62,235 nt of DNA from Candidatus Magasanikiibacteriota bacterium (GTDB lineage Bacteria; Patescibacteriota; Patescibacteriia; Magasanikbacterales; GWA2-37-8): positions 810,447 to 872,681 of the forward strand of contig DAIOHD010000001.1 in NCBI GenBank assembly GCA_036744835.1, in the 5' to 3' direction. This document shows positions 38,751-56,876 of this stretch, one piece after another. Numbering within the stretch: the stretch's first letter is position 1; the number at the start of each line of letters is the position of its first letter. The notes under the pieces were generated by a model that saw only the letters and a list, made by a program, of their open reading frames with translations, was not told the origin of the DNA and did no database searches. Both the position numbers and the translations under genes were made by a program.

Positions 38751-38784
38751 AAAAAAACCCGCCCTTAAATAAGGGCGGGTTTTT
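38751..38784. terminator. Bidirectional terminator
   Basis: AAAAAAACCCGCCCTT-AAAT-AAGGGCGGGTTTTT. Confidence 0.85.
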
Positions 38785-38939
38785 GTTGCGGGACTCGGAC
38801 TTGGTCGCGACTAAAATTTTCTTCCGAAAATTTTGTCTAACCACCGCCTCCCGATTGCGCTCGCTCATCTGCGTCGCGCAATATCGGTCCGGTGTTCAAG
38901 TCCTAAAAAGCAACACAAATTATTGTGTTGCTTTGTTTG
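38782..38939 (-). mobile_element. tRNA-linked structured cassette (fMet copy)
   Basis: 21-bp direct copy of the tRNA 3' end (38782-38802 = 38936-38956), 10-bp perfect inverted T-arm (38894-38903), 36-nt block identical to the Ala cassette. Confidence 0.8.
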
Positions 38940-39012
38940 TTGCGGGACTCGGACTTGAACCGAGAACCTCCAGGTTATGGGCCTGGCGAGCTGCCAATTG
39001 CTCTATCCCGCT
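38940..39012 (-). tRNA. Initiator-type tRNA-Met(CAT)
   Basis: Unpaired 1:72 (A/A), GAGCA..GCTC D arm as in fMet, CCAGG-CC CAT AA-CCTGG. Confidence 0.9.
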
Positions 39013-39022
39013 GTATGGCTCG

Positions 39023-39096
39023 AGCGGTAGACCGGATTCGAACCGGCGACCTTCTCCTTGGCAAGGAGACATTCTAGCCAACTGAACTACTACCGC
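39023..39096 (-). tRNA. tRNA-Gly(GCC)
   Basis: GCGGTAG/CTACCGC, U73, TCTCC-TT GCC AA-GGAGA. Confidence 0.95.
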
Positions 39097-39109
39097 ATTT
39101 TGTAAAATG

Positions 39110-39138
39110 ATTATAGTAATTTTTTTTTCTTTTGTCAA
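39110..39138 (-). promoter_or_regulatory. Consensus sigma70 promoter of the tRNA-Gly/fMet unit
   Basis: TTGACA-17-TATAAT. Confidence 0.85.
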
Positions 39139-39269
39139 GCTTATAAAAAATCATCCTTCTTTTAAATAAAATTTATTTTTAAAAAAAATAATGAATATAT
39201 AGCATAAACAATCAAATTTTTAATTAAGGAATTTACGCTAATTATATCTACCAATATTTAGCGCCTAAC

Positions 39270-39298
39270 TTGACAAAAAGGCTAAAATGTGCTACAAT
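39270..39298 (+). promoter_or_regulatory. sigma70 promoter of the high-GC orphan
   Basis: TTGACA-17-TACAAT; the ORF-track TTG start at 39270 is actually this -35 box. Confidence 0.75.
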
Positions 39299-39341
39299 CA
39301 TATGTTTTGTACCTTTTAACAACGACCTGAGGAGGCACCAG

Positions 39342-53927: not shown

Positions 53928-53931
53928 TACT

Positions 53932-54459
53932 ATGATGATTCTCAATCTTAATTTAATGCCCAAATCAAAAAAACACGAATTATTATTACTGACCAGAATA
54001 AACCTGGTAAGAACTTTTTTTATATATTCTTTTTATTTATTAATGGTTTTTCTCGTTTTTTTGGTTATTTTTTATTATAATTTAAACCAACAACTTGATA
54101 ATCTCAACAAAAGTCGTTCTTTGGTTAATAATAGTTTTGTGGAATATAATCAAGAAATATTGGAATTGAACAAAAATATTGACAACCTTAATGTTGCCGG
54201 AAAAAATTATCACGAACTATCTTCAAAATTTTTACAAATTATTGAAACCGTGCCAAATGATATTAAATTGTCTTCTTTTTCTTTAAGCTTGGACAAAAAA
54301 GCTGTTTTTCTACCCGGAGTGGCTAAAGATAGAGATGCACTTTTGCGTTATGGAGAAATTCTAAGCAGTCTTTCTTGGATAAAAAGTGTAGATATACCCA
54401 AAACTCAACTACTCCAAAAAGAAAATATCACTTTTAATATTGGTCTAGAGTTACAATAA
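53932..54459 (+). CDS. pilN: PilN-like protein
   Basis: LNLNLMP N-terminal motif, TM, coiled coil; position after pilM. Confidence 0.75.
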   Translation: MMILNLNLMPKSKKHELLLLTRINLVRTFFIYSFYLLMVFLVFLVIFYYNLNQQLDNLNKSRSLVNNSFVEYNQEILELNKNIDNLNVAGKNYHELSSKFLQIIETVPNDIKLSSFSLSLDKKAVFLPGVAKDRDALLRYGEILSSLSWIKSVDIPKTQLLQKENITFNIGLELQ

Positions 54460-54460
54460 T

Positions 54461-55006
54461 ATGATTCAAATTTTTCTTCAAAGAATAAAACTGACTATCT
54501 TTCTTTTTCTGTTGTTAAACGGCTTGGCTGGATTTAGTATCTACAAATTAGAAACTATGATTCAAAACAAAGACAAAGAAATTAAAGAATATTTATCCGA
54601 ACTAGAAAGAAAAAGTCGCGGGTCTCAAAATCTCAAAGAGGCTTTGGAACAAGCTCGCAATACTAAAGTTATTATCAGTGGTTTTGAAAAATACTTATTT
54701 AAAAGTGGGAATGAGCTCAACCTGATTACCGACTTAGAAAATATCGCGCAAACAAATAAAGTTACTCAAAAAATAGAGTCTTCCAACTTGGATAAAATAG
54801 TTAACAATACCATTTTTTTAACTTTGAGAATCTCCGGCACTTATACCGACACTTTAAATTATTTAATGGATTTGGAAAATTATGACTATTTTCTACAAAT
54901 AAAAACTTTGGATTTTAATCCAGTTTATGATTTGAAAAATCCCGAAAGTCCGGAAGGGGCTCGAACGGATTTACGTTTAACCTTGAATCTTTATGTCAAC
55001 CCTTAA
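54461..55006 (+). CDS. pilO: PilO-like protein
   Basis: TM plus coiled coil, L.ISGTY...F..LE pattern; position after pilN. Confidence 0.7.
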   Translation: MIQIFLQRIKLTIFLFLLLNGLAGFSIYKLETMIQNKDKEIKEYLSELERKSRGSQNLKEALEQARNTKVIISGFEKYLFKSGNELNLITDLENIAQTNKVTQKIESSNLDKIVNNTIFLTLRISGTYTDTLNYLMDLENYDYFLQIKTLDFNPVYDLKNPESPEGARTDLRLTLNLYVNP

Positions 55007-55403
55007 AAAAATTCCTTGGACAAAAAAATTAGCTAAACAATTAAATTCTGTAACCGTAGAAAATCGTGACGAGCTTTTTTTGTGGAAGACCACGACTATT
55101 TTTGTTTTTATTTTGATGGTTTTATCTGTTTCTTATTTTGTTCGTTTGGGGTACCAAAAAACTAATGCTTTACTTGACCAAACCAGTGATACAGTGGTAA
55201 ATAAATCCGGTTTTAGTATCGAAAATATAGATATGGAAGCTTTTGAAAAAGCCGCCGTACTTATCGATTACAAAAAAAACCCCTTGACACTTCCTTCGAA
55301 AATTCGTAATGTATTCTTCTACGACAAAGAAGAAAATACCGGTTATGTTCCACCAACAGCAGCTTCAACTACTACCATATCTTTGGAAAACAATAACTCT
55401 TAA
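54993..55403 (+). CDS. Single-TM hypothetical protein at the PilP position
   Basis: Overlaps pilO stop; one TM. Confidence 0.65.
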   Translation: MSTLKKIPWTKKLAKQLNSVTVENRDELFLWKTTTIFVFILMVLSVSYFVRLGYQKTNALLDQTSDTVVNKSGFSIENIDMEAFEKAAVLIDYKKNPLTLPSKIRNVFFYDKEENTGYVPPTAASTTTISLENNNS

Positions 55404-55405
55404 AA

Positions 55406-56620
55406 ATGACCGACTTAACACAAAAAAATTATTGGTTTTTATTGGGTAACAACCCGGAATTATCCGCTGCCGAAATCGGCGCGGTTTTAAATTTGAAAAA
55501 AATTGAAAAAAAAGATTTTGCCCCTCCGTTTTTATTTGTTAATAAAAAAATTGAAGCACAAACACTTATAAAAAAACTAGGAGGAACAATAAAAATTGCC
55601 GTGGAGCTAGGTAAAAATTTAAATAAAGACGAAGTGATTGAAATAATAGTCAGTGATTTAAAAGACAAGACAGGAAAAATACATTTTGGGTTAAGTGATT
55701 ATTCTCCGAAAAACAATGAAAACTTATATCGTTTAAAAACAATCGGATTAGAAAGTAAAAAAAATCTTAAAGCTTTGGGATTATCCGTACGCTTCGCTTA
55801 TAATAACGAACAAATTCTTTCTTCTGTTTCAGTAGATAAAAACTTTTTGATAAAAAAGGGGGGAGAATATATTTATATCTCTACAAATTCCGGTTTTTCT
55901 TTGGCCAAAACTGTATGCGTGCAACCTTTTGAAAATTTTGGCGAAAGAGATTTTGGCCGTCCGGGCAGAGATAGTTTGAGTGGCATGTTACCACCAAAAT
56001 TGGCTCTTATGATGCTAAATTTGGCCAAAATTAGCCCTTCTGACACGTTACTCGACCCTTTCTGCGGTTCTGGTACTATTCTCACCGAAGCCCTTAATTT
56101 GGGGATAAACAACATCATTGGTTCAGACAATTCGGAAAGAGCGATAAAAGATACTCAAGAAAATGTTGAATGGTTGATGGAGCAAAATAATATCCAATAT
56201 TCAATATCCAATATCCCAAAAAACATTTTTATCTCCCCTGTTGAAAATATTTCCAAACACCTAAAAAATAATAGTATCGACAAAATCGTGACCGAACCTT
56301 TCTTAGGTAAACCACTCAAGGGAAATGAAAAATATGAAACTCTGGTTCAACAAGCTGGTGATTTAAAAAATTTATATTTACACGCATTTGCTGAATTTAA
56401 AAAAGTTTTAAAATCTGGCGGTGAAGTTGTCTTTATCATCCCCTGTTTCAAACAAGGTAACGAGTGGATAAAAATAAATATGGAAACGGAATTAAGCAAA
56501 CTTGGTTTCAAAACAGAGTCACTACTTACCGTTGATGAAAAAAAATATTCCTCTATTCTTTATAGCCGAAATGATCAGCATGTTGGTCGCGAAATTTGGC
56601 GGTTTATTCTTGACAAATAA
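55406..56620 (+). CDS. Class I SAM-dependent RNA methyltransferase (Trm11/UPF0020-like)
   Basis: LPPKLA..M.NLA, LLDPFCGSGTILTEA, IVTEPFLG. Confidence 0.85.
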   Translation: MTDLTQKNYWFLLGNNPELSAAEIGAVLNLKKIEKKDFAPPFLFVNKKIEAQTLIKKLGGTIKIAVELGKNLNKDEVIEIIVSDLKDKTGKIHFGLSDYSPKNNENLYRLKTIGLESKKNLKALGLSVRFAYNNEQILSSVSVDKNFLIKKGGEYIYISTNSGFSLAKTVCVQPFENFGERDFGRPGRDSLSGMLPPKLALMMLNLAKISPSDTLLDPFCGSGTILTEALNLGINNIIGSDNSERAIKDTQENVEWLMEQNNIQYSISNIPKNIFISPVENISKHLKNNSIDKIVTEPFLGKPLKGNEKYETLVQQAGDLKNLYLHAFAEFKKVLKSGGEVVFIIPCFKQGNEWIKINMETELSKLGFKTESLLTVDEKKYSSILYSRNDQHVGREIWRFILDK

Positions 56621-56652
56621 ACCAAAATACGGCACAATAATGACACAAAAAT

Positions 56653-56726
56653 GGGCCTGTAGCGTAGCTGGCTAGCGCGTCTCCATGGCATGGAGAAGGT
56701 CAGGGGTTCGAATCCCCTCAGGTCCA
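56653..56726 (+). tRNA. tRNA-Ala(GGC)
   Basis: GGGCCTG/CAGGTCC acceptor with G3:U70; TCTCC-AT GGC AT-GGAGA. Confidence 0.93.
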
Positions 56727-56876
56727 CAAAGAGTCCGTCAAAGACGGACGACGGGGATGAGAACGCCGGAACGTTGTCGAGTGACGCAGAAGAGCGAACG
56801 AGACCGTGAGGCGGTGACCAGACAAAATTTTCGGAAGAAAATTTTAGTCGCGACCGAATCCCCTCAGGTCCACAAA
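56727..56876 (+). mobile_element. tRNA-linked structured cassette (Ala copy)
   Basis: Hairpin GTCCGTC/GACGGAC, GGGGATGAGAAC (10/12 to inverted T-arm), core shared with the fMet cassette, 22-bp direct copy of the tRNA 3' end (56855-56876 = 56709-56730). Confidence 0.8.

Follow-up and report, generated by a model that had tools for sequence, protein, structure and literature searches.

We describe a previously undescribed family of small elements without open reading frame (ORF) that reside in the 3′ trailers of tRNA and tmRNA genes of Magasanikbacteria-type Patescibacteria and whose RNA fold is supported by covariation. Two members lie behind tRNA-Ala and tRNA-Met in a 62,235 nucleotide (nt) stretch of a Candidatus Magasanikiibacteriota genome (contig DAIOHD010000001.1, positions 810,447 to 872,681), which was analysed as a whole and is called the window here. 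The architecture of the family is constant, and each copy carries its own antisense guide and its own duplicate of the tRNA tail. The copies are maintained from one species to another, and their distribution among close relatives is patchy. Overall, these observations are best explained by an ORF-less element that homes to T-loops, duplicates its target and is, according to promoter and terminator predictions, co-transcribed with the tRNA, an explanation to which we give an even chance. Read conservatively, they describe a well-supported structured RNA family with three or four classes and at least 84 copies in Patescibacteria tRNA and tmRNA trailers.

Both copies contain the same block of 36 nt, AGACAAAATTTTCGGAAGAAAATTTTAGTCGCGACC, which has exactly two exact copies in the window, at 56820-56855 (+) and 38803-38838 (−), whereas none is expected by chance (100 dinucleotide shuffles). 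The perfect match on opposite strands at two different tRNAs, noted in a preliminary description of this DNA, was thus found at both sites. The similarity reaches upstream of the block, since it is part of inverted-repeat arms of 101 nt (38797-38897 and 56761-56861) that are 82% complementary. At both loci the block is directly followed by a 21 nt exact duplicate of the tail of the adjoining tRNA, starting at T-loop position 57, which agrees with the right end of the element proposed in that description. In line with that description, the two copies are separate members of a repeat family rather than products of a local duplication.

The 36 nt block is the P4 arm of a subfamily, class I variant a, of a structured element of approximately 94 nt. 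Its 27 nt hairpin core recurs without change at 36 loci of about 17 further species-level genomes, therefore the identity inside the window is uninformative on how recent the two copies are. The complete block is also present at tRNA-Leu (locus L165), at tRNA-Gln (L166) and in a class IV element (L017). We dropped the assumption that it is invariant across the family: it occurs in just 13 of the 76 copies of a sample collected independently of P4, and its apparent invariance was partly an ascertainment effect, since copies L152-L184 were collected by exact match to P4. P4 itself is a hairpin that covaries and comes in variants a and b with intermediate forms between them, and genomes contain mixtures of these.

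Read in the sense of the tRNA, both loci have the same order: the tRNA is followed by a hairpin (P0), a segment antisense to the T-arm that ends in GAAC (the guide), the core, the 36 nt block ending in GCGACC, the duplicate of the tRNA tail and a strong terminator (Table 1). In the Ala element the GA of the guide faces G57 and A58 of tRNA-Ala, and the 5′ part of the guide forms helix P1 with the duplicate. Promoter and terminator scans predict at both loci a single transcription unit consisting of promoter, tRNA or tRNAs, element with duplicate, and terminator; the terminator scan gave no terminator between tRNA-Ala and its element. No ORF was found inside or next to any copy in the window, where the downstream genes are ychF and a convergent AI-2E transporter gene. 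The neighbours of the elements are housekeeping genes (PNPase, YchF, AI-2E transporter, methyltransferases, pilus genes, NrdD, RuvB). What had been noted before did not include the guide, the covariation of the RNA fold or the sister elements at tRNA-His and tRNA-Leu(TAA).

The guide comprises 10-16 nt, is antisense to the T-arm of its own tRNA (positions 53-56 and 59-65) and ends in GAAC. Comparison of 32 copies showed that it pairs with the cognate T-arm in 88-100% at positions 53-56, in 62-97% at positions 59-65 and in just 16-41% at positions 66-67. The terminal GAAC is common to all classes, and inside the element a partner exists for its G alone; the guide therefore reads as antisense to the intact T-arm, beyond the duplicate alone. 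The class I junction is located inside the T-loop between positions 56 and 57. Duplicate and tRNA tail are identical at 18 of 18 positions in most copies, and the repeat has a length of 17-21 nt, or 50-73 nt in L003, L004 and L097. When the full Ala transcript is folded, both the minimum free energy and the centroid structure pair the guide with the T-arm of its own tRNA; for the full Met transcript the cloverleaf arms and P1 are preferred. In both folds the 5′ acceptor strand of the tRNA can equally pair with the distal duplicate. These models predict that pairing of the guide with the T-arm competes with its pairing with the duplicate (P1). A tRNA-like acceptor helix of leader and duplicate was rejected as a general feature, as the cognate combinations yielded 4.66 base pairs (bp) and the non-cognate control likewise 4.66 bp. 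A hammerhead or other small ribozyme motif in the GAUGAGAAC guide region was also discarded, the sequence not being conserved between copies. In L097 (1509-1760) a direct repeat of 73 nt, spanning tRNA tail, terminator, leader and guide, flanks a class III core, and its second guide is followed by unrelated sequence.

The fold was assessed on an alignment of 34 class I sequences, with column shuffles and slid alignments as controls. Compensatory double substitutions are present in 27 of the 34 predicted core pairs, and 95.7% of the cells are paired; for column shuffles this value is 84.3% and for slid controls 34-42%. The covariation score was 0.383 (control: 0.164). The resulting structure is a three-way junction of P1, P2-P3 and P4a-P4. 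P1 is formed by the 5′ part of the guide and positions 59-65 of the duplicate, plus the pair G12-C56′; P2-P3 is a long hairpin with a variable apex; P4 is an 11 bp hairpin in which an A is bulged and the GGAA tetraloop is invariant. In P4a the GGC(C/T) located 5′ of P4 pairs with the terminal (G/A)GCC, and this pairing covaries, 15 copies having T-A in place of C-G. Covariation is likewise seen in class II (5 sequences) and class III (4 sequences), where the helix between guide and duplicate again closes the structure. The excess of G-U over A-C pairs (20 vs. 13), the co-orientation with the tRNA and the invariant GNRA loop make folding of the tRNA-sense strand as RNA more probable than folding as single-stranded DNA.

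Class I copies were gathered by pattern scans of species-representative genomes and metagenomes. Altogether, 84 distinct copies were found in about 40 Patescibacteria metagenome-assembled genomes (MAGs), which belong to Magasanik-, Kuenen-, Uhr- and Yanofskybacteria and Minisyncoccia and of which several are mislabelled as Gammaproteobacteria; a single genome can contain at least six. A tRNA on the same strand is located less than 450 nt upstream in 73 of the 84 copies, covering 14 amino-acid families and 28 anticodons. The rest comprises three copies at locus edges, one behind a tmRNA gene, two behind an intron-split tRNA-Asn and a few orphans, so that at least 79 of the 84 are tied to tRNA or tmRNA tails. 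The core measures 92-95 nt in 75 copies. Counting the copies and recording their junctions, as the preliminary description had suggested, thus showed that essentially all adjoin a tRNA or tmRNA tail without a gap, and ordinary repetitive extragenic palindromic (REP) sequences are excluded for this reason.

Tail duplicates are strongly oriented: across all Patescibacteria loci (178 tRNAs) 33 were located downstream and one upstream, at a distance of 63-358 nt with an 8.9 kb classical integrase island as the single exception. When loci were sampled without bias, with ychF as the anchor, a tail duplicate lay downstream of 8 of 107 tRNAs and upstream of 1 of 107. High-GC and viral matches to the first patterns proved to be chance matches in coding DNA; the same applies to all ten viral matches to a relaxed P3 pattern, which lie in a coding gene, and the P4 hairpin had no match in IMG/VR. 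As neither pattern yielded a viral copy, a phage origin was dropped. Some loci have unusual hosts. Directly behind the tmRNA gene of L229 (4263-4687 and approximately 4765) lies a class I element whose guide and duplicate fit the T-arm of the tRNA-like domain. In L183 (1737-2010) and the homologous region of L179 a class I element lies behind a tRNA-Asn(GTT) gene with a group I intron inside it (in L183, 49.3 bits and E = 1.5e-11 with Rfam); ARAGORN misses the L183 gene because of this intron.

Sister elements are present elsewhere in the window. Four of its eight tRNAs (His, Leu-TAA, Met, Ala) are followed by a duplicate of their own tail and an antisense T-loop segment. The elements behind tRNA-His and tRNA-Leu(TAA) represent classes II and III, which have cores unlike that of class I and share the architecture of guide, core and duplicate; in other MAGs class II has at least eight members and class III at least four, and both covary there. 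The class IV copy in tandem after the class III element has a degenerate 3′ end without duplicate and is a decayed copy. Behind tRNA-Leu(TAG) a 21 nt stub remains that is homologous to the 5′ half of P0 of the array intact in L165 and L017. At this site a full class I element is present in the closest relative, L165, and an array of classes I and IV in L017. The window tRNA-Leu(TAG) was therefore ruled out as an empty site, since the stub of an older array is present.

Neither window copy has the other as its closest relative. The window Ala copy is closest to the orthologous Ala copy of L002 (98% identity), and its P2-P3 domain is identical (100%) to that of a tRNA-Ala(TGC) copy bearing the other P4 variant; the window Met copy is closest to the tRNA-Asp copy of L004 (88%). 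Between each other the two are 74% identical in P2-P3, 83% over the core and 43% in the guide. The Ala element is common to at least two other species (L002/L073 and L074/L164) and is therefore older than their split. A peculiar insertion inside the duplicate of the Asp element is common to three species, identifying it as an old, vertically inherited insertion, while P2-P3 has diverged down to 60-72% identity with compensatory changes. The earlier view of the two window copies as recent twins is consequently not borne out. Two very recent independent insertions in this genome would fit the 36/36 identity and the lack of a Met-linked variant-a copy in the three closest genomes, yet the identical hairpin at many loci, the divergence in guide and P2-P3 and the closer kin in other genomes make them very improbable, and for Ala the orthologs contradict them.

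Turnover has also left traces. In L072, the closest relative (YchF 94% identical), an identical tRNA-Ala is directly followed by a related terminator, without element. Comparison of L072 9700-9900 with window positions 56600-56905 showed that the cassette of promoter, tRNA-Ala and terminator is inverted in place, between a methyltransferase gene and ychF. At tRNA-Gly(TCC) a class II element is present in L072, and the same site is empty in the window and in L073. Tandem arrays were found at the window tRNA-Leu(TAA) (III+IV), in L017 (I+IV) and in L158 (II+I), and there are stubs, orphans and duplicates broken by small hairpins. The element-free Ala allele and the class II element of L072, the arrays, the stubs and the orphans are signs like those of a mobile element.

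Some loci show further rearrangements. In L003 the tRNA-Pro(CGG) at 6274-6347 is a chimera: its 5′ part is identical up to the T-loop to the tRNA-Pro(CGG) at 7698, and its 3′ end, CGCTAGCCCGAC, is also present about 100 nt behind tRNA-Pro(GGG) (5700-5790). Such a structure suggests that tRNA genes have recombined at the T-loop. In L005 (560-800) the native tRNA-Leu(GAG) is truncated at its 5′ side by an inserted second, CCA-encoding tRNA-Leu(GAG) gene, and the class I element and its duplicate still fit the truncated native tRNA. Small GC-rich hairpin modules are nested in tail duplicates or at the P2/P4 junction in L119 (approximately 3470-3690), L017 (approximately 4800-4840), L154, L155, L159 and L172, for example a 39 nt unit present three times in L119 and CCCGCCCGGATGAATCCGTTCGGACGGG; they may represent a separate miniature insertion family.

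In our view, the chance is a little short of even that the elements are non-autonomous and mobile, find T-loops as their targets by base pairing and duplicate the tail of the target. Transcription reading through from the tRNA promoter would yield the element RNA, which 3′ processing would then release. The guide would pair with the T-arm of the target, a join would form in the T-loop, and the target's own 3′ end would be re-copied by target-primed or copy-choice synthesis. Such re-copying would leave the tRNA intact and would automatically provide each copy with its tRNA-specific tail; homing coupled to tail duplication would account for one core being found joined to many different tRNA tails. 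That the elements represent a new, protein-independent kind of guided mobility, in which the transcript itself recognizes the T-arm of the tRNA gene or transcript and is joined between positions 56 and 57 solely by host enzymes or by its own catalysis, is doubtful. Possible routes would be target-primed copying or a 3′ end exchange resembling trans-splicing, with the tail duplicated or replaced and the tRNA unharmed. Most copies are best read as old, vertically inherited and under selection for the RNA fold including P1, with rare movement.

Several observations weigh against homing and mobility. Positions 57-58 are mismatched with the guide (GA) in about two thirds of the copies and complementary in about one third. 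No copy looks freshly inserted, and the orthologs retained between species change in a compensatory manner, a pattern that a resident functional RNA would explain no less well than a selfish element. The element-free allele of L072 is not a clean empty site, because its tRNA cassette is locally inverted. A crude six-frame motif screen (HUH+YxxxQ, RuvC-III) of the window and of 1.66 Mb from relatives, on partial genomes, revealed no hallmark of a reverse transcriptase (RT), of TnpB or of a Y1 or other transposase. In addition, action at the level of RNA and of single-stranded DNA (ssDNA) is inseparable in silico, G-U and A-C pairs numbering 20 and 13. The mobile, ssDNA and resident-RNA readings are not mutually exclusive.

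The elements could instead be a resident, cis-acting trailer RNA that benefits the host and has spread among tRNA genes by rare recombination without itself being mobile. The guide would briefly pair with the T-arm and later be displaced by the duplicate, as a switch in folding, processing or quality control. The orthologs kept between species with compensatory evolution of P2-P3 and a conserved P4, the P1 pairing maintained for each tRNA, the predicted transcription unit common to tRNA and element, the energetically competitive pairings of the guide and the lack of a mobility enzyme in the motif screen all suit this possibility. However, one architecture is combined with at least four structurally different cores, different classes stand in tandem on one tRNA besides decayed stubs and orphans, and the distribution is patchy among close relatives, with about 7% of the tRNAs occupied in the unbiased sample. 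Multiple classes, arrays, decay and patchiness would be expected from selfish elements more than from a housekeeping RNA, and we therefore consider a resident RNA rather unlikely. A palindrome-associated transposable element (PATE) of the IS200/IS605 type, moved in trans as ssDNA by a Y1 (HUH) transposase and restoring the tRNA upon excision, is improbable. In such a scheme the GAAC 5′ of P2-P3 would be the left guide for the GTTC cleavage site of the T-loop and the GGC(C/T) 5′ of P4 the right guide for the terminal (G/A)GCC. The subterminal hairpins, the insertion always 3′ of GTTC, to which GAAC is complementary in the T-loop, the size of 100-170 nt without ORF and the covarying P4a, in which four nucleotides just 5′ of the foot of P4 pair with the final four of the element, agree with it, the GAAC and P4a pairings being compatible rather than specific. 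On the other hand, the IS200/IS605 family makes no target duplication while a 17-21 nt tail repeat is present here, and the left end would therefore need a tRNA-specific tail for each of the 28 anticodon types. The guide has 10-16 nt instead of four, the GGAA tetraloop and tandem G-A pairs suggest RNA, no Y1 or TnpB hallmark appeared in the crude screen of partly sampled genomes, and none of the 110 core-bearing loci holds a full-length relative.

The register of the guide across the junction and the identity of the 3′ segment with the tRNA tail would also suit an intron-like or trans-splicing ribozyme, in which the guide is an internal guide sequence (IGS) over the splice junction, composed of the reverse complements of the beginning of the 3′ exon and of the end of the 5′ exon, and the duplicate a 3′ exon able to replace the tRNA 3′ end between positions 56 and 57. 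The conserved three-way junction of the core and the pairing of the 5′ acceptor strand with the distal duplicate in the full-transcript folds point in the same direction. But a core of only about 94 nt, several unrelated cores with one layout, the lack of any Rfam ribozyme or intron match even at E≤10 and of a recognizable catalytic motif argue against it, and splicing would be neutral as an intact tRNA is already present upstream; we regard a ribozyme as quite improbable. A direct repeat from the T-loop to the tRNA 3′ end, as found here, is the classical signature of T-loop-type integrases, and real integrase islands occur in these bacteria: in L116 (940-9885) a classical 8.9 kb island at tRNA-Ala(GGC) has a tyrosine integrase adjoining the tRNA and a 44 nt repeat. 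That the elements are attL/attR scars of such islands at tRNA genes, or an assembly artefact, is nevertheless extremely improbable. Scars would not account for the constant core length, the strong covariation and the tRNA-specific antisense guide, the elements contain no ORF and have housekeeping genes instead of an integrase as neighbours, and the L116 island differs in that its repeat starts from the anticodon stem and its integrase lies beside the tRNA. The scar interpretation was rejected, since a genuine island looks different. One architecture was found in more than 40 independent assemblies, and mis-assembly is excluded for this reason.

Searches also covered partner enzymes, known RNA families and prior descriptions. 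A Pfam scan of 30 window ORFs revealed no partner enzyme, and the 1.66 Mb motif screen yielded only four tyrosine-recombinase-like matches. With Rfam 15 at gathering thresholds the window matched tRNA, rRNA and group I intron models only, none of them on the element; no match was obtained for the element in L003 and L004 at E≤1, and a 271 nt element search at E≤10 gave sub-threshold noise (at most 19 bits, with gathering scores of at least 42). The group I model does detect the intron in the window 23S rRNA gene (61 bits) and that in tRNA-Asn of L183 (49 bits). The element thus matches no known RNA family at gathering or relaxed Rfam thresholds, and full-text literature searches retrieved no description of such an element.

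Comparison with known systems shows partial similarities, and in each case at least one defining feature was looked for and is lacking. Group I intron IGSs and engineered trans-splicing ribozymes share the contiguous antisense across the junction, with the complement of the 3′ side located 5′, and a downstream segment equal to the 3′ portion of the target; the element lacks the catalytic core (P3-P9, no Rfam match), has several unrelated cores, its class I core being about 94 nt, and does not interrupt the tRNA. PATEs of the IS200/IS605 family are likewise small and ORF-less with subterminal hairpins, a tetranucleotide pairing of the P4a type and insertion 3′ of GTTC; the element differs by a target duplication of 17-70 nt, its guide of 10-16 nt, the GGAA tetraloop, tandem G-A pairs and the absence of a detected Y1 transposase. 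Tyrosine-integrase islands of the T-loop type at tRNA genes and their miniature derivatives, the cis-mobilizable elements (CIMEs), also have a tRNA 3′ end repeat starting in the T-loop, restore the tRNA and form tandem arrays at one tRNA, in contrast to which the element has no integrase, a fixed insert of about 100-170 nt with a covarying fold and a guide, and one core family at 28 anticodon types. Bridge (seek) RNAs of IS110/IS1111 and the omega RNAs of TnpB and IscB are structured non-coding RNAs at the element end that match the flanking target, but here no recombinase or nuclease gene adjoins and the guide is not located in internal loops. If the duplicate acted as a guide of the omega type, it would hit the host's intact tRNA gene just upstream, and this possibility was rejected for this reason.

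R2 non-long-terminal-repeat retrotransposons resemble the element in being co-transcribed with the target, in a 3′ read-through that equals the target and could anneal to the nick, and in duplications of variable length; the element is bacterial and ORF-less, no RT was detected in the sampled DNA, and the likeness is mechanistic only. REP sequences, bacterial interspersed mosaic elements (BIMEs) and REP doublets forming hairpins (REPINs) are short, structured, multicopy, intergenic and ORF-less too, whereas the element is tied to tRNA and tmRNA T-loops, has a copy-specific guide and duplicate and forms a three-way junction instead of a simple palindrome. For a retron RNA an RT gene is lacking, as the genes downstream of the window elements are those named above and no RT motif appeared in the crude screen of 1.66 Mb. 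If the homing interpretation is true, a protein-less element of about 100 nt would choose its target by base pairing and spare the essential gene into which it inserts, a natural design akin to those of bridge RNAs, omega RNAs and trans-splicing ribozymes, but in a new form. To our knowledge, the non-coding RNA biology of Patescibacteria is almost unexplored. Duplicated tRNA tails, chimeric tRNAs, long intergenic regions beside tRNAs and similar recurrent peculiarities of these MAGs, which current annotation pipelines ignore or mis-call, are accounted for by the element.

Table 1. Features of the tRNA-linked elements in the window. Columns: feature; position in the window; strand; remarks.
Feature	Position	Strand	Remarks
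Sigma-70-like promoter of the tRNA-Ala unit	56610..56638	+	TTGACA-17-CACAAT; promoter scan
tRNA-Ala(GGC)	56653..56727	+	tail from T-loop position 57 (56710-56730) is the duplicated sequence
Ala P0 hairpin	56733..56749	+	GTCCGTC-AAA-GACGGAC
Ala guide	56753..56764	+	GGGGAT-GA-GAAC; antisense to T-arm positions 53-56 and 59-64
Ala P2-P3 domain	56764..56814	+	P2 CGCC/GGCG; long P3 hairpin, apical GACGCAGAAGAGCGA
Ala P4a and P4 hairpin	56815..56855	+	11 bp, bulged A, GGAA tetraloop; ends GCGACC; holds the 36 nt block
Direct duplicate of the tRNA-Ala tail	56856..56876	+	identical to 56710-56730; position 57 to discriminator plus CAAA
Rho-independent terminator of the tRNA-Ala/element unit	56874..56903	+	terminator scan
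Consensus promoter of the tRNA-Gly(GCC)-tRNA-Met operon	39110..39138	−	TTGACA-17-TATAAT; promoter scan
tRNA-Met(CAU)	38939..39012	−	tail 38936-38956 is the duplicated sequence
Met P0 hairpin	38910..38931	−	GCAACACAA-TAAT-TTGTGTTGC
Met guide	38894..38904	−	AGGACTTGAAC; fully antisense to T-arm GTTCAAGTCCT
Met P2-P3 domain	38842..38894	−	
Met P4a and P4 hairpin	38803..38841	−	ends GCGACC; holds the 36 nt block (38803-38838)
Direct duplicate of the tRNA-Met tail	38782..38802	−	identical to 38936-38956
Terminator of the Gly-Met-element unit	38750..38784	−	terminator scan
Class II element behind tRNA-His (12407-12479)	12536..12654	+	guide AAAATTGAAC 12536-12545; 94 nt core 12546-12639; tail duplicate 12640-12654
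Class III element behind tRNA-Leu(TAA) (25673-25755)	25814..25973	+	guide GCGGGAATCGAAC 25814-25826; 131 nt core; tail duplicate 25958-25973
Class IV element in tandem after class III	26017..26176	+	P0; guide GTCGGGATGAGAAC; different P2-P3 domain; variant-b P4
Element stub of 21 nt behind tRNA-Leu(TAG) (7539-7621)	7517..7537	−	homologous to the 5′ half of P0 in L165 and L017

An AT-rich intergenic motif, AATTTTCAATTTTTAATTAATTTTCA..., is present in both orientations at 2322-2376, 12680-12732, 32642-32703, 36007-36063 and 56904-56985; two of its copies directly follow the terminators at the His and Ala elements. The 23S rRNA gene (3396-6768) contains a group I intron at 4337-4530 (−; Rfam 61 bits), which is typical of Patescibacteria, and the 5S rRNA gene is located at 3229-3336. 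Between 11547 and 18380 about ten paralogous small ORFs are encoded on the minus strand (repeat families D1, D2, D4 and D5). One ORF of the run, 11210-11896, gave a weak T4SS-pilin match, and the run therefore resembles an array of pilin-like genes. The ORF 58192-62127 (−; 1311 amino acids) contains at 60500-61258 six tandem repeats of 126 nt (42 amino acids) that are 60-73% identical.

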